A stretch of 64,000 nucleotides of DNA from Gemmatimonadota bacterium. GTDB taxonomy: Bacteria; Gemmatimonadota; Gemmatimonadetes; Palauibacterales; KS3-K002. The position numbers were made by a program, and so were the translations under genes. Position 1 is the stretch's first letter; each line of letters begins with the position of its first letter. This document shows, in pieces, positions 13,654 through 22,794 of this stretch. The stretch lies in the NCBI GenBank assembly GCA_039586795.1, contig JBDHJS010000002.1, positions 64,001 through 128,000 on the forward strand, written 5' to 3'. The notes under the pieces were generated by a model. The model searched no databases. It saw nothing but the letters and a program-made list of their open reading frames with translations, and was not told the origin of the DNA.

Positions 13654-14217
13654 TTACCGTTGGTACTCCTTCAGCGCCTCTCTCAGCATCCGGCGGGCGC
13701 GGGAGAGGTGTGACCGGCACGTCCCCTCCGGGATGCCGAGCACTTTTGCGATCTCGGGGTGCGTGAAACCCTCCAGGTCATGGAGGACCACCACCGTCTC
13801 GAGATCATCGGGCAGCGAGCTCACCGCTGCGGCCAAACGGCCGCGCAACTCCGCCCGCTCCGTATCGACCGCCGGGCTGTCAGGCCCTGAGGCCGACGCC
13901 GGCACGTCCTCGGTGCGCCGGCGGGCCAGGTACTTCCGTCGGTTGAGCGCCGCGTTCACCAGTAGCCGGTAGAACCACGGCCCGAAGTTGCTGCCCCGAC
14001 CCAGCTTGTCGATCCGCTCCAGCGCCCGGATGAACGCATCCTGGACCAGGTCCTCGGAGTCCTCGGCGTGCTGGAGAAACCCATAGGCGACGGCGAAAGC
14101 CTGCTCGGAATAGCGATCCACGAGGATGCCAAAGGCCTCCCGGTCACCCCGGCGCACGCGCTCGACGAGCAGCGGCTCGTCGATGACCGGAGTCTGGCCC
14201 TCACCCGTGGCGTCCAT
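13654..14217 (-). CDS. ECF-type RNA polymerase sigma factor
   Basis: GDREAFGILVDRY, DSEDLVQDAF, FGPWFYRL, LHDLEGFTHPEIAKVLGIPEGTCRSHLSRAR. Confidence 0.93.
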   Translation of the reverse strand: MDATGEGQTPVIDEPLLVERVRRGDREAFGILVDRYSEQAFAVAYGFLQHAEDSEDLVQDAFIRALERIDKLGRGSNFGPWFYRLLVNAALNRRKYLARRRTEDVPASASGPDSPAVDTERAELRGRLAAAVSSLPDDLETVVVLHDLEGFTHPEIAKVLGIPEGTCRSHLSRARRMLREALKEYQR

Positions 14218-14316
14218 CGCCCTCGCAGTGCTAACACTTGAGCGGCTGGGAGCGTTGGCCCGTTCCGGGCCGCCACTCCGGTTGCCTGGTTTGACGAAAA
14301 GTCTAGCTTGAAGGAT

Positions 14317-14598
14317 ATGGCAACGCAGCCTACAGGCCACCCCCGGGCCCGGGATGACGTGATGTTTCGTCAGGTGGACGATGAGTGGGTTGTGTTCGAT
14401 CCAGCTGCGAACGACCTCCACGTCCTCAACCTCTCCGCGGCCCTGATCTGGAGCCACCTGACCGGCGACTGTTCGGAGGCAGACATCGCTGCCGCCGTTC
14501 AGGAGGCCTTTGGCATCGAGCCGCAGCAGGCGGAATCCGACGTTCGGGAGGCGCTAGGGCGGTTCCGAAGCGCCGGGCTGTTGGCCGGCGACGCCTGA
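14317..14598 (+). CDS. PqqD-family peptide chaperone / RiPP recognition element (RRE)
   Basis: 93 aa; VMFRQVDDEWVVFDP..NDLHVLNLSAALIWSHLTG..SEADIA....EAF.....AESDV...LGRF..AGLL, the typical stand-alone PqqD pattern. Confidence 0.9.
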   Translation: MATQPTGHPRARDDVMFRQVDDEWVVFDPAANDLHVLNLSAALIWSHLTGDCSEADIAAAVQEAFGIEPQQAESDVREALGRFRSAGLLAGDA

Positions 14599-14619
14599 GA
14601 CCGTCCGCCGAACCGGGCG

Positions 14620-15792
14620 ATGAGCACCCACGATTATCGCGATTTCTTGTCCGACGCCCCCCGCGTCGATGCTTACCGGCGTGCGATACAGTCCACCGTG
14701 AAGCCGGGCGACGTCGTGCTCGACGTGGGAACGGGGATCGGGACGTACGCGATGTTCGCGGCACGGGCGGGCGCCAGGGTCCTGGCCGTCGAGATGGATC
14801 CGGTGATCGATACCGCCCGGGAGCTTGCGGCGGAGAACGGCCTCGACGACCGCATCGTCTTCCTGCGAGGTCGCGTCGAGGAGCTCGAGCCACCGGAGCC
14901 GGCCGACGTTCTGATCTTCGAGGACTTCTCCCCCTTTCTCTATCACTCGGATACGTCGCGCCTGCTCGATCGGGTGGCCAGCCGTTGGCTCAAGTCGTCG
15001 GCGACGTCGATTCCCCGATCGCTGAGGGCGATCACAGCGCCGGTCAGCTGCCCGACCGCGTACGGCGCAATCGCGCCATGGGGAGACGGAAAGGCGTTCG
15101 GGCTCGATGTCGGCCGGTTTTCGCGACAACTCTTCAACGAGTTACATCCGGTTGTATTCGACCCCAAGGTCATCCTGGCTGACCCTCTGGAAGCGGGCCG
15201 CGTCGAGCTGCCGTCCGCCGATCCGTTCGGCCTGGACGTGTCGGTCGGCTGGCAGGCGGATCGGGAGGCGGAGCTGCACGGTCTCGGGCTTTGGATCGAT
15301 CTCGAGCTGGCAGAAGGTGTGACATTCTCCAACGCCCCGAGGGGCCTTTCCACCGGCTGGGATCAGCGCCTACTGCCTCTGGCTGAGCCGATTGAAGTCC
15401 TGGCCGGCGATGCTATCGAGGCGCAGGTTCGGACGATGGGCCCCGCTCCTCGGGAACCGGAGTGGTGGAGTTGGCGGGTATCGGCCGGTGGCCGGACGCA
15501 AGAGATGAACACGTTCAAAGGCCTACCGTTGTCGAAGGCACAACTGCGACAGGCTGGAGTAGATCGACGGCCGAACCTCGGCGCCCGCGGCAAGATCCGA
15601 CTCGCGGTTCTGGAACTCATGGATGGGCGCCATTCAGTCGCCCAGATCGCTGGGGAGCTGAGGGAACGTTTTCCGGATCTGCTGAGTACCGATGCAGAGG
15701 CCTTGCGCGCGGTTGCGCGGGAGATAAGGCTCAACGAGGATCCCGCCTCCACCCAGGCGCGCGACACGCCAGGAACGAGCACGGAAAGATGA
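14620..15792 (+). CDS. Protein-arginine-methyltransferase (PRMT)-like class I SAM methyltransferase with a C-terminal RRE-like helical segment
   Basis: YRDFLSDAPRVDAYRRAI, VVLDVGTGIG, VLAVE, DVLIFE, beta-barrel region LHGLGLWIDLEL...FSNAP...TGWDQ; C-terminal LELMDGRHSVAQIAGELRERFPD. Confidence 0.8.
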   Translation: MSTHDYRDFLSDAPRVDAYRRAIQSTVKPGDVVLDVGTGIGTYAMFAARAGARVLAVEMDPVIDTARELAAENGLDDRIVFLRGRVEELEPPEPADVLIFEDFSPFLYHSDTSRLLDRVASRWLKSSATSIPRSLRAITAPVSCPTAYGAIAPWGDGKAFGLDVGRFSRQLFNELHPVVFDPKVILADPLEAGRVELPSADPFGLDVSVGWQADREAELHGLGLWIDLELAEGVTFSNAPRGLSTGWDQRLLPLAEPIEVLAGDAIEAQVRTMGPAPREPEWWSWRVSAGGRTQEMNTFKGLPLSKAQLRQAGVDRRPNLGARGKIRLAVLELMDGRHSVAQIAGELRERFPDLLSTDAEALRAVAREIRLNEDPASTQARDTPGTSTER

Positions 15793-16040
15793 ACCACGAA
15801 GATCCGACACGCCGGGAGTTTCTTCTCAAGATCGCCCGTGGCGCGGTCTATAGCGCGCCGCTGATCGCGACGTTTGCCGTGGCTCCGGATCTGCTGGCAC
15901 AGGCAGGCTCGGCGCCCGGCCACCATCACATGCACGCGGCCCCATCGGCGCCCCAGCAGACCACGACTCCGTCCGACGCGCCCGGCGCTTCGCCGACGGA
16001 GAAGCATCCGCCGCCGAGCAGGAAAGGCGAGGGCGGCTAG
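15789..16040 (+). CDS. Putative RiPP precursor peptide (83 aa) with twin-arginine/YxxP leader
   Basis: ATG overlaps the methyltransferase stop (ATGA); MNHEDPTRREFLLKIARGAVYSAPLIATFAVAPDLLAQAGSAPGHHHMHAAPSAPQQTTTPSDAPGASPTEKHPPPSRKGEGG. Confidence 0.7.
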   Translation: MNHEDPTRREFLLKIARGAVYSAPLIATFAVAPDLLAQAGSAPGHHHMHAAPSAPQQTTTPSDAPGASPTEKHPPPSRKGEGG

Positions 16041-16052
16041 GCGCCGCGTTCG

Positions 16053-16865
16053 GTGTCCGACCCGGCGACTCTCCTCTATCGCTTTCCCGGCGCCGAGCGG
16101 ATCGTCTCCGCCCGCGTCGCGCCGACCGAGTTCATTCCCCTCATAGACGATTTCTATGCTGCCTATCGCTGTCGCTTATCTGACAGCGAGCTGCCGGTCG
16201 ATCAGGTGATCGAGCTGGAGTACGATGGCGGTGTGTACCGGGTAACGGTCCCCAGTGGCGATTGGGAAGCGGAGTCCGAGGGAGACGCCGTCCTGTTCTA
16301 CGAATACGAGCTGACCGATGCGCTGCTAACAGGCGCCGACGAGTTCGTTAATCTGCATGGTACCGCAGTCGTTCGTGAGTCGCGCTCGATGCTGCTGTTG
16401 GGTCCGTCAGGCACCGGGAAATCGACACTCGCCCTGGCCCTATCGCTGGCGGGTTGGCAAACGATCGCCGATGACGCGCTGCTGATCGACCCGGGGACGG
16501 GTGAGGTCCAACCGTTCGACCGGTCAATCCGCGTCCACGAGTCTAGCTTGCGGGCGCTAGATGTTGATCACGCCACCATCGAAGGGGCCCGATTCTGTGA
16601 ACCGTACCTGTGGCTGAAGGTGCCCGAATCCGGCGCACCCGGTTTGCTCAACCCGGATGCCCTGGTGTTTCTGCGGTCCGGAGCGGCGACCTCGATAGAG
16701 CGGCTGGACGTCACAAACACCCTGAGGGAACTGTTGATCGCGCGCCTGAGCGACCAGAGCGAGCGCGACTTCGATTGTCTGGCGCGTCTTGCAGCAGAGG
16801 TGCCGGGCTATCTACTGAGCTTCGAGGGCTTCCCGGAAGCGCTGGCGGAGCTAGAGTCGCTCTGA
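16053..16865 (+). CDS. HPr kinase-related P-loop kinase
   Basis: LHGTAV, Walker A GPSGTGKST, IADDALLID: the HprK-like His / P-loop / DD signature. Confidence 0.85.
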   Translation: MSDPATLLYRFPGAERIVSARVAPTEFIPLIDDFYAAYRCRLSDSELPVDQVIELEYDGGVYRVTVPSGDWEAESEGDAVLFYEYELTDALLTGADEFVNLHGTAVVRESRSMLLLGPSGTGKSTLALALSLAGWQTIADDALLIDPGTGEVQPFDRSIRVHESSLRALDVDHATIEGARFCEPYLWLKVPESGAPGLLNPDALVFLRSGAATSIERLDVTNTLRELLIARLSDQSERDFDCLARLAAEVPGYLLSFEGFPEALAELESL

Positions 16866-17273
16866 CCCGTAAGCATCGGACCAGAGGTCAGCGTTCTCCA
16901 TCACCCGCACCCTGTAGACGCTCACGCCTTCGGGCAACCGCGCCTCGACCTTTTCAAGGATGAAGGCCGCCAGGTTCTCTGTGGTCGGCATCCGACCGCC
17001 AGGGCCGAACTCGGGGATCTCGGAGTTGATGTCCCGGCCATGGAGTGGGATGACTTCGGCCCCTAGGATCTTGTCGAGCGCCCCGAGGTCGATGACCATC
17101 CCGCTCTTCTCATCGATCGCGCCCTGGACGGTAACCTCGCAGCGATAGTCGTGGGCGTGGGTCTCCGCCAAAGCGCCGAAGCGCCGGCGGTTCTCCTCTT
17201 CGCTCCAGTCAGAACGATGGTAGTGATGCGACGCGGTGAAACGGACCGCTCGCGTAAGAAAGCCCAATGGCAT
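16851..17273 (-). CDS. 6-pyruvoyl tetrahydropterin synthase / QueD family protein
   Basis: FTASHHY, WSEEEN..RFG, HAHDY, GMVIDL, PTTENLA. Confidence 0.88.
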   Translation of the reverse strand: MPLGFLTRAVRFTASHHYHRSDWSEEENRRRFGALAETHAHDYRCEVTVQGAIDEKSGMVIDLGALDKILGAEVIPLHGRDINSEIPEFGPGGRMPTTENLAAFILEKVEARLPEGVSVYRVRVMENADLWSDAYGSERL

Positions 17274-17341
17274 GGTTCCCAATCCCTGAATCCCTCTGAA
17301 AGCCTCGATATCTTTGACTGGGCCCGGTAAGTTAGGCACTC

Positions 17342-21260: not shown

Positions 21261-21362
21261 CCTCCCTTCGCCCACGCCTCTGTGGGGAACCTCTCGAAAA
21301 ACAAGTCTGTTACAGGAACGTGGAAGTGCAGTGCAGCCCGCGGGATGGGGGAGCCTAACTGT

Positions 21363-21743
21363 ATGCGCAGCAAAACGTTCGGAGTGTCGGCCCTTCTGGC
21401 CGTTGTGGCGGCCTCCGCCGTCTTGACCCGAGAGATCTCCGGAACGCAGGACCGACTTTCCTCTGCGTCCGTGATCGACATCGAGATCAAGACATTCCAA
21501 TTCAACGAGGACACGATTCGGGTGCAGCCGGGCACGTCTGTCCGCTGGACCAACCGTGACCAGGTCGGTCATACGAGCACAGCGGAGAACGGCGAGTGGG
21601 AATCGCCGCTGCTGGGACCGGGCGAGTCGTTCGAGTTTCTCTTCGAGGAAGAGGGCGAATTCCCGTATACCTGCACGCCACACCCATTCATGCGTGGAAT
21701 GATCATCGTTGCGTCCGATGCGGATGCGCGAGAGCGCTCATGA
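21363..21743 (+). CDS. Secreted cupredoxin (amicyanin/plastocyanin-like)
   Basis: Signal peptide; VRWTNRD..GHTST...YTCTPHPFMRG (His, Cys, His, Met type-1 copper ligands). Confidence 0.88.
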   Translation: MRSKTFGVSALLAVVAASAVLTREISGTQDRLSSASVIDIEIKTFQFNEDTIRVQPGTSVRWTNRDQVGHTSTAENGEWESPLLGPGESFEFLFEEEGEFPYTCTPHPFMRGMIIVASDADARERS

Positions 21744-21789
21744 GGCGTCTGTCGAAGTGTACATACATGACCTGCATCAAGGAGGGAGT

Positions 21790-22794
21790 ATGAAGAAGCC
21801 GAGGTTTGCGTTCGCGTCGACCGTTGCCGTCCTCGCCGTCGGCGCGCTGGCGTGGTCCGCCTGCTCCGACTCGACGGAGCCGAATGGGAACGGCAATGGC
21901 AACGGCAACGTCGGTCCCCCGGCCAACGTCGCTATCGCCTCCGGTGATAACCAGCGCGTGATGATTCAGATCGCATTCTTCGATGCGCTCGTCGTGCTGG
22001 TGACCGACGCCGATGGTGACGCCGTATCCGGTGCGACAGTAGACTGGGCCATCACCCAGGGCGGTGGCTCGCTGTCCGCGGCCAGTTCGACGACGAACGC
22101 CAACGGGCGGGCGAGCGTGACGCTCACGGCCGGCATGGACGAAGAGACCATCCAGGTCACGGCCAGCGTGGACGGAGTGGCCAGCGCCCCGGTCTTCAGC
22201 GAAGTGGCCGTGGAGCCGAGCTCGATAGCGGCGACCGACGGCGACAACCAGATGGCCCGGATCGATCAGCCGCTGGCGAACCCGCTTGAAGTCACGGTGC
22301 GGGCCAGTGACAACGGTCCGGTGCCCGGCGCCACGGTGGACTGGCAGGTGACGGCAAACGACGGGACGCTGTCCACGGCTAGCTCTACAACGGACGCGAA
22401 CGGCGAGGCGACGACGATGCTGACCCTCGGTTCGACCCTGGGCGGGAACACCGTTCAGGCGTCGGCTGGTACGGGAATCGATACGAACCTGAACGCCAAC
22501 GGTACGCAGCCCGTTTCGGTCACGGTGGACATGCAGAACATCGCGTTCAACGCGCCGGGGGGCGGGGACGATGTGACGATCATGCTCGGCGATACCGTGA
22601 CCTGGAACAACCTGGATGCGGTGAACCACACGGCCACGTCGAACAGCGTGCCCACGGGCGGCAGCGGCTTCGACAGCGGTACGATGGGGAACGGCGCTAC
22701 GTTCTCGTTCGTGCCTAACACCCGGGGCGAGTGGATCTACTTATGCGAGTTCCATCCGGTTGCCATGGCGGACGCCCGCATCGTCGTGCAGTGA
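21790..22794 (+). CDS. Lipoprotein with two Ig-like (Big_1-like) repeats and a C-terminal cupredoxin domain
   Basis: Lipobox WSAC, GN linker, repeated GDNQ...GATVDW..T...GxLS.ASSTT.ANG.A, then WNNLDAVNHTAT...YLCEFHPVAM. Confidence 0.8.
   Translation: MKKPRFAFASTVAVLAVGALAWSACSDSTEPNGNGNGNGNVGPPANVAIASGDNQRVMIQIAFFDALVVLVTDADGDAVSGATVDWAITQGGGSLSAASSTTNANGRASVTLTAGMDEETIQVTASVDGVASAPVFSEVAVEPSSIAATDGDNQMARIDQPLANPLEVTVRASDNGPVPGATVDWQVTANDGTLSTASSTTDANGEATTMLTLGSTLGGNTVQASAGTGIDTNLNANGTQPVSVTVDMQNIAFNAPGGGDDVTIMLGDTVTWNNLDAVNHTATSNSVPTGGSGFDSGTMGNGATFSFVPNTRGEWIYLCEFHPVAMADARIVVQ

Follow-up and report, generated by a model that had tools for sequence, protein, structure and literature searches.

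A Gemmatimonadota operon combining a Tat-like precursor leader with a peptide-recognition element, an HPr kinase-related kinase and a PRMT-fold methyltransferase: a probable exported phosphopeptide system

What does an operon make that joins a peptide-binding protein to a kinase and a eukaryote-type methyltransferase? The operon in question occupies positions 14317 to 16865 of a 64,000-nucleotide stretch (the window) of contig JBDHJS010000002.1 from a Gemmatimonadota bacterium (GCA_039586795.1; contig positions 64,001 to 128,000). It encodes a stand-alone recognition element (RRE) for peptides made on the ribosome and modified after translation (RiPPs), a methyltransferase with the fold of protein arginine methyltransferases (PRMTs), a precursor peptide and an HPr kinase (HPrK)-related kinase. 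An earlier note on this DNA had described four co-oriented, packed genes between a divergent extracytoplasmic function (ECF) sigma gene and a convergent QueD/PTPS-family gene. All four open reading frames (ORFs) lie where it placed them, spaced by 21 nt, a 4-nt ATGA overlap between the methyltransferase and precursor genes, and 12 nt, and domain calls confirmed both flanks. On balance, the operon probably makes an exported linear phosphopeptide by means of the RRE, the kinase, the PRMT-fold enzyme and a leader of the twin-arginine translocation (Tat) type.

The precursor has a leader with several conserved elements. It carries a twin-arginine motif (TRREFL, residues 7–12), the sequence YSAPLI (residues 21–26), a predicted cleavage site LLA|Q38 and a conserved Ser41, and downstream of Ser41 there are a His-rich stretch, a Pro-rich linker and a PTEKHPPPS motif. 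TRREFLL is followed by 14 uncharged residues and then LLA|Q, which matches S/T-R-R-x-F-L-K plus a signal peptidase I site. The TatFind rule sets an uncharged stretch of 13 residues, and a run of at least this length was found in 28 of 33 aligned precursors, in all of which R8, R9 and P24 are invariant. Along the precursor (14 sequences), pN/pS was 0.16 in the leader, 0.36 in residues 38–47, 0.70 in the linker and 0.23 in the C-terminal motif; this motif, P[ST][ED][KR][HY], was present in 17 of the 18 sequences of alignment A1. In 71 further homologues, whose counts overstate conservation because the search profile itself contained these motifs and because many of the sequences are related, the RR motif was present in 67, with Y exactly 13 residues after RR in 60 of these. 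An (A/G)|Q site was found in 64 of the 67 RR-bearing homologues, 16–18 residues from Y in 59 of the 64. Residue −1 is always A or G because the site was defined so; residue −3 is mostly L or A, and Pro stands at −6 in 43 and at −5 in 17 of the 64. Ser occupies position +4 in 43 of the 64, compared with about 7% Ser in the cores, and lies within +3 to +6 in 54. Judged by its sequence, the leader has the layout of a Tat signal peptide plus signal peptidase I site, with the putative RRE-binding motif within the hydrophobic region. The TIGR01409 Tat cut-off was passed by the Nitrospinota member L081 and by two longer proteins with the same leader. Genes for TatC and signal peptidase I are present in the genome; its two PF10502 genes are on other contigs than the operon. 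Tat export and cleavage by the housekeeping signal peptidase I at LLA|Q38 would rather probably release a 46-residue His/Pro-rich peptide with an N-terminal Gln into the periplasm. A 192-aa ORF at 15462-16040 was considered as the start of the precursor gene and rejected, the homologues starting at the ATG that overlaps the methyltransferase stop.

The RRE is the only one found by a search of this genome. As the earlier note had proposed, it belongs to the PqqD/RRE family by hidden Markov model search (PF05402, 56.9 bits, cut-off 23.4; TIGR04353, 48.7 bits, cut-off 35), and its closest solved structures are TfuB1, LppB (9x8z) and TbiB1. According to the main text of PMC13381572, to which statements on the linear polyphosphorylated peptides (LPPs) are limited here, LppB residues N33 and D70 contact the Pro kink and the Tyr of YxxP, and F74 divides the binding cleft. 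N33 and D70 align with N38 and D75 of the RRE, which are kept in 29 of 29 and 27 of 29 RREs, respectively. The RRE therefore likely binds the YxxP motif of the precursor, and it is highly probable that leader binding would retain the precursor in the cytoplasm during modification.

The kinase has TIGR04352 (HprK_rel_A) as its best family, at 60.9 bits, below the cut-off of 200, and HPr kinases as its closest solved structures. H102, the Walker A motif G120-x-G122-K123, D140 and R157 are invariant in 25 of 25 aligned sequences, in keeping with the HPrK-like kinase named earlier. Its target would quite likely be Ser41, core position +4, which it may phosphorylate or polyphosphorylate. In L245, L246 and L247 (phylum of the Desulfobacterales record) and in L060, an RRE is fused to the kinase N-terminus.

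The four genes recur together. The same-family sample of 30 genomes contained 14 with a full-length methyltransferase orthologue (49–71% identity), the sister-family sample 0 of 30. The earlier note had suggested testing for synteny in other genomes, and the order RRE-methyltransferase-precursor-kinase was kept in all 14 operon-bearing genomes, one of them split over two contigs; the flanking genes are syntenic across the family too, so that with the whole neighbourhood conserved, flanks included, these 14 count as a single locus handed down by descent. An RRE, methyltransferase or kinase gene lay within 1.5 kb of a short precursor at 13 of 14 loci, compared with 0 of 13 when the loci were those of ordinary, long Tat substrates. 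This control, together with the much lower pN/pS of the leader than of the linker, indicates that the association goes beyond chance.

The leader profile matched 38 of 401 Gemmatimonadota genomes, a tally that includes the unpublished G152, excluded from further use. Seventeen regions around short-ORF leader matches, taken from 14 genomes of other Gemmatimonadota families with different flanks, contained a kinase in 15 cases, an RRE in 14, a methyltransferase in 13, a PF14907 nucleotidyltransferase (NTase) in 11 and a lasso cyclase or B2 protein in none; the order kinase-NTase-RRE-methyltransferase-precursor was found in 9 of the 17. The usual Gemmatimonadota cassette is one of five genes, including the PF14907 NTase. 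In the phyla of the Nitrospinota, Desulfobacterales and Rokuibacteriota records, a wider leader profile had matches in 5 of 120 genomes, 4 of 301 and 14 of 201, respectively (the last tally includes the unpublished G900, excluded from further use). From these three phyla 20 of 25 places were taken, and 19 of these plus L216 were analysed as 20 regions, which contained an RRE in 17, a kinase in 16, an NTase in 11, a methyltransferase in 1 and a cyclase or B2 in 0, with an RRE-kinase fusion in 3. These cassette counts across phyla indicate that precursor, RRE and kinase form the core of the system, that the NTase is frequent, and that the methyltransferase is mostly a Gemmatimonadota addition, an accessory enzyme that is optional elsewhere. 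The expected co-occurrence of the methyltransferase with RRE, kinase and precursor thus held within Gemmatimonadota, but not in the three other phyla.

The leader is not restricted to short peptides, which raises another explanation: the Tat and YxxP leader may be a portable tag of a general modification route for exported proteins, not of a natural-product pathway. It would direct any protein behind it to RRE, kinase and NTase for phospho-glycosylation close to the mature N-terminus, and the RRE would proofread Tat export as a chaperone. The core sequences are widely variable, as this would predict, and a 197-aa leader-bearing protein lies directly after an RRE in L252 (6980-7573). The RRxF...YxxP leader was also seen on proteins of 140–219 aa (P0238, P0246, P0267, P0271, P0279, P0285, P0288, P0289 and P0291, known from sequence alone), none of the four scanned having a Pfam family, and on the 76-aa P0282, whose tail resembles IPTL-CTERM at 15.9 bits, short of the cut-off of 20.5. 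However, in the exhaustive leader search (216 clusters at 50% identity, E up to 0.001) most matches were only 50–130 aa, and YxxP occurred in the leader of 0 of 24 Tat-like ORFs scanned in this genome, a scan that missed the precursor itself because its longest ORF begins upstream. The window peptide is then the only apparent client in the genome, and the portable-tag explanation is unlikely.

The methyltransferase is a full PRMT homologue, with a SAM (S-adenosylmethionine)-binding Rossmann domain and a PRMT beta-barrel, which bears out the eukaryote-type fold claimed for it. PF22528 (PRMT_C) scored 30.1 bits (cut-off 27), and the methyltransferase profile matched eukaryotic PRMT6 over positions 4–275 with E 1e-57. 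With the AlphaFold model (pLDDT 88.7), the top Foldseek matches were all PRMTs, PRMT6 having a TM-score of about 0.64 by query and 0.78 by target. Residues ~322–374 form a C-terminal three-helix RRE remnant that aligns to the RRE helices (E 8.5e-5, probability 60%). A full second RRE was rejected: the tail is without beta-strands and without N38/D75 equivalents, and it is missing in L064, L072, L197 and L202.

The fold and the first double-E glutamate are shared with the eukaryotic enzymes (PRMT1/6/CARM1), but the motifs of the pocket are changed. SEW has become FED and THW has become TGW, the second glutamate is shifted or variable, and the RRE-like helical tail is extra. Across the Tat-cassette clade, E101 is present in 24 of 24 sequences, D102 in 23 of 24 and an acidic residue at 109–111, 8–10 places on, in 19 of 24; the PRMT6 second-Glu position is Ser110 in this enzyme, with Asp111 adjoining. 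THW was found in 0 of 24 clade members, although THW/LHW is retained in 7 of 10 other bacterial homologues compared. PRMT5 also lacks the THW His. The likely substrate is nearly without core arginine: the first 25 core residues of 75 precursors contain 6.3% His, 9.2% Met, 6.1% Lys and 1.3% Arg, compared with about 2%, 2%, 2% and 8% in the long-ORF background of the genome, a rough value that includes shadow frames. Arginine methylation in the core was judged unlikely, since of 64 precursors 7 have an Arg among their first 15 core residues, versus 61 with a Lys or His. Given the altered pocket and the arginine-poor cores, Lys or His is the likelier methyl target, with Arg, including the leader RR, as a lesser candidate; that the enzyme methylates the precursor on a basic side chain not far from Ser41, more probably Lys or His than Arg, seems likely.

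The twin arginines themselves could be the target. The leader would then be merely Tat-like and the peptide cytoplasmic, and a true arginine methyltransferase would act on the RR pair, the methylation being a feature of the product or a means of shutting off export. These are the only invariant arginines of the precursor (33 of 33), the acidic residues of the double-E loop are largely kept as described above, and the operon contains neither a transporter nor a peptidase gene. In contrast, conservation of the (L/A)x(A/G)|Q site with its upstream Pro at fixed distance would be expected of a signal peptidase I substrate and is otherwise hard to account for, no member of the clade retains THW, and RR is kept in clusters without the methyltransferase (19 of the 20 regions in other phyla). 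Such arginine methylation is improbable, and export of the peptide remains the preferred reading.

The methyltransferase family also leads to lasso peptides. Among 38 distant methyltransferase loci, 17 are lasso-type clusters with a cyclase-like gene and a kinase, 15 of them with B2; L060, whose cyclase-like gene is on the other strand, was left out of this count. The lasso methyltransferases described in the accessible text of PMC9266682 do not have the PRMT fold but belong to the carboxyl O-methyltransferases and the PIMT homologues. Phosphorylated or glycosylated lasso systems (paeninodin type; pseudomycoidin with PsmK/PsmN), as far as their published descriptions go, resemble the present operon in the B1-type RRE, the HPrK-like Ser kinase and a nucleotidyltransferase-like enzyme, and lasso-type clusters of many phyla share the same PRMT-like family. 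They differ in having a macrolactam synthetase and B2; the candidate Ser here is near the core N-terminus whereas that of the lasso peptides is C-terminal, and the leader here is Tat-like. The genome yielded no gene over the PF13471 cut-off. A quick tree of 50 methyltransferases placed the 24 labelled Tat-cassette enzymes (one, L050, without a visible precursor) on one side of a branch with support 89 (inner 22 rows, 97), apart from the lasso-cluster enzymes. That the operon is a non-working, decaying remnant of a lasso-type cluster that lost cyclase, B2 and nucleotidyltransferase might be read from these lasso-type relatives and from the operon's not being found in 16 of 30 family genomes (methyltransferase query) and being split or partial in G318, G211 and G389, but it is very improbable given four intact frames under purifying selection (whole-gene pN/pS 0.32–0.44), a cyclase or B2 beside 0 of 37 precursor regions, the separate methyltransferase branch and a conserved promoter-like motif.

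Consistent with the earlier note, the four-gene operon has none of the genes for a lasso cyclase, a B2 protein, a radical SAM enzyme or a nucleotidyltransferase. The note's view of the kinase and methyltransferase as the sole tailoring enzymes is probably incomplete, because the NTase common in relatives' cassettes is encoded elsewhere in this genome. One gene passed the PF14907 cut-off (G000:C49:79517-80674). It lies between gmd/rmd-like and ugd genes in a nucleotide-sugar operon (L260, G000:C49:74741-83932) that encodes a nucleotide-sugar dehydrogenase, the GDP-mannose 4,6-dehydratase Gmd (TIGR01472 over cut-off), an epimerase/reductase-like protein related to it, the PF14907 NTase, a ugd-like protein resembling UDP-glucose dehydrogenase, an epimerase-family protein, a GT2 glycosyltransferase and two TPR proteins; no RRE or kinase was found around it in C49:68000-92000. 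An NTase orthologue (49–63% identity) adjoins the same ugd-like gene in 16 family genomes, namely all 14 operon-bearing ones, G029, which has its RRE at the end of a contig, and G023. The nearest branch to this NTase holds the in-cassette NTases of L051 and L064, with support 89 in a quick tree that flags the join as a long-branch join. According to the accessible part of PMC6993621, PsmN is required for the hexose on phosphoserine in pseudomycoidin. The presence of the PF14907 gene in a nucleotide-sugar operon, here and in all operon-bearing relatives, suggests a phospho-glycopeptide. By analogy with PsmN, the chances are evenly balanced that the trans-encoded NTase would put a sugar on the phosphoserine, and about even odds can likewise be given for its having moved out of the cassette while still acting on the peptide.

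The closest described system is that of the LPPs of Bacillota (lppA/K/B/S/D/N; Popov et al. 2026, PMC13381572), whose clusters encode an RRE along with an HprK-like kinase, an NTP transferase, a SipW-like peptidase and an MsbA-like exporter. LppK adds up to four phosphates, localised to core Ser3, just past a signal-peptidase-type cut. The present operon shares the discrete RRE, the YxxP leader, the HPrK-like kinase and the missing cyclase, an NTP transferase gene outside the operon being a partial parallel, and it also has a Ser a few residues past a signal-peptidase-type cut, the LppA core starting A-Q-S and the core here Q-A-G-S. In contrast, this cluster has neither LppS, the dedicated archaeal-type (SipW-like) peptidase, nor an MsbA-like exporter. 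The LPP leader consensus YxxPxVLxHQxIxFETxxS is absent, only YxxP and a downstream Ser being common to both, and the NTP transferase, which is within the LPP cluster, is unlinked here although present in the cassettes of many Gemmatimonadota relatives. The terms methyltransferase, Tat and twin-arginine do not occur in the main text of PMC13381572, whereas a twin-arginine leader and a PRMT-fold methyltransferase mark this operon. Differing in peptidase, exporter and leader consensus, the operon is not an LPP member, though LPP-like in its predicted working. The uncharacterised HPr-rel-A system (TIGR04352 kinase, TIGR04353 PqqD chaperone) is another relative by the family assignments of RRE and kinase, from which this kinase departs by its score far below the cut-off; the RRE of L198 misses TIGR04353, and no HPr-rel-A precursor or methyltransferase model matched in this operon. 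The earlier statement that no described RiPP class fits stands so far as no exact match was found, but the LPPs and the lasso-type clusters with the same methyltransferase family are nearer known systems than it implied. A literature search largely outside subscription papers gave nothing on Tat-leader RiPPs that have an RRE, on PRMT-like RiPP enzymes or on HPr-rel-A, so that absence from print is unproven. The operon is real and conserved, an apparently unstudied Gram-negative relative of the phosphorylated RRE-dependent peptides, marked by its dual Tat/RRE leader and PRMT-fold enzyme.

Beside the limits given above for the motif counts, the 14 family genomes and the NTase tree, several points weigh against an exported, modified phosphopeptide. 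The Tat pathway normally transports folded proteins, and the composition of the precursor core predicts disorder. The window precursor had no TIGR01409 match at E 0.1, its only match being TIGR02811 at E 0.028. The candidate Ser at +4 is missing in 21 of 64 homologues. At the position of LppB F74, 20 of the 29 RREs have Ala and 7 have Thr, a partial departure from the LPP RRE. A PF05096 glutaminyl cyclase was looked for in the genome and not found, which leaves a pyroglutamate N-terminus unsupported. For the NTase step, G023 (97% complete) keeps the NTase orthologue although no RRE, precursor or methyltransferase was found there, and deletion of lppN had no effect in a heterologous host (PMC13381572, main text). 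In the exported-phosphopeptide reading, the product would most likely serve the cell envelope, being polysaccharide-associated or metal-binding, which is the weakest step. A wider proposal, an undescribed and widespread peptide class, is tentative and rather doubtful. In it, one leader would be both Tat signal and RRE-binding leader, the RRE would proofread export as a chaperone, and a dedicated transporter and protease would give way to the housekeeping Tat system and signal peptidase I; in Gemmatimonadota the peptide would be phosphorylated, phosphate-glycosylated by an NTase relocated to a nucleotide-sugar operon and methylated by a PRMT-fold enzyme re-aimed to Lys/His, and the tag would also be on longer exported proteins.

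If the reading is true, this would be a ribosomal-peptide pathway without dedicated protease or exporter, in which a 37-residue leader does enzyme recruitment, export and cleavage and may serve as a portable tag wherever phospho-, glyco- or methyl-peptides are to be secreted. A concrete substrate and site (Ser +4) would be at hand for the kinase/RRE cassettes of HPr-rel-A-like type, which are uncharacterised, and a bacterial PRMT-fold enzyme with a short defined substrate would bear on the origin of PRMT chemistry. The reaction of the PsmN/LppN family is left open in the available texts of PMC13381572 and PMC6993621; an NTase between GDP-mannose dehydratase/reductase-like and UDP-glucose dehydrogenase genes would suggest candidate sugar donors for it.

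Table 1. Features of the operon and its immediate surroundings, in window coordinates.
Feature	Position	Strand	Basis
RRE (PqqD family), stand-alone, 93 aa	14317..14598	+	PF05402, TIGR04353 over cut-off
PRMT-fold SAM-dependent methyltransferase, 390 aa	14620..15792	+	profile, model, fold search
Precursor peptide, 83 aa	15789..16040	+	motif conservation; no family over cut-off
HPrK-related kinase, 270 aa, GTG start	16053..16865	+	TIGR04352 best family, below cut-off
Sigma70-like promoter candidate, TTGCCT-16-TAGCTT	14282..14309	+	conservation; function inferred
ECF sigma gene, divergent	13654-14217	-	domain call
PTPS/QueD-family gene, convergent	16851-17339	-	domain call

The promoter candidate ends 7 nt 5' of the RRE start codon. 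Its pattern, TTG-16/17-TAGCTT, and this distance are kept in 12 of 13 aligned intergenic regions, the sole miss being the distant L207, which suggests a housekeeping promoter belonging to the operon; the transcript is predicted to be leaderless or near-leaderless. A scan for the strict sigma70 consensus and terminators gave nothing on the operon strand. On the other strand, a CCAACGCTC-N12-GTGTT motif (window 14232-14258) lies 13–17 nt 5' of the ECF start codon and is kept in 12 of 13 aligned regions; it is likely the autoregulatory promoter of the ECF sigma factor itself. Beyond the ECF genes, upstream of the operon, are ABC/RND-type genes on the opposite strand. RNA-library runs gave small word shares only (0.05–0.10), and in the four of six that were aligned, short contigs with 0 or 1 differences overlap parts of the methyltransferase and precursor genes (X3 15815-16031; X2 15938-16177; X6 15627-15825; X1 15212-15362 and 15403-15553); they were not counted as evidence of expression because such contigs cannot reveal transcription, strand or level.

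Some further loci were noted. At L207 (G318:C27:47500-64500), from another family, the same ECF-to-PTPS locus has a precursor encoded opposite to the strand that RRE and kinase share, with no methyltransferase or NTase match between them. In L198, L199, L200, L205 and L212, same-strand genes after the precursor encode a flavin disulfide oxidoreductase, a VTT-domain protein, DUF547, GT2 and DUF2064 (families named for L198). The named methyltransferase homologues come from Gemmatimonadota, and no relative was found in the viral contigs scanned. Matches in the ESM Atlas were confined to unnamed clusters at 0.90, with a recognition value under the threshold, and were left out of account. Some of the 17 lasso-type clusters with a PRMT-fold methyltransferase beside the kinase (L057-L086, many phyla) add 2OG-Fe(II), PhyH or sulfotransferase genes, and many of their precursors end in Lys adjoining Ser or Thr. 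Stand-alone PRMT homologues that keep THW and the SEW...E double-E loop intact, without RRE tail and with no RRE or kinase nearby, occur in L068, L079, L083, L087 and L082 (Acidobacteriota, Planctomycetota, Poribacteria and Lentisphaerota records) and are candidate true bacterial arginine methyltransferases. In the window itself, 4.4 kb downstream of the operon (21282-22794, + strand), there are genes for a cupredoxin (PF00127) and for a protein of Ig-like repeats whose C-terminal motif is cupredoxin-like, noted because the peptide cores are His/Met-rich.

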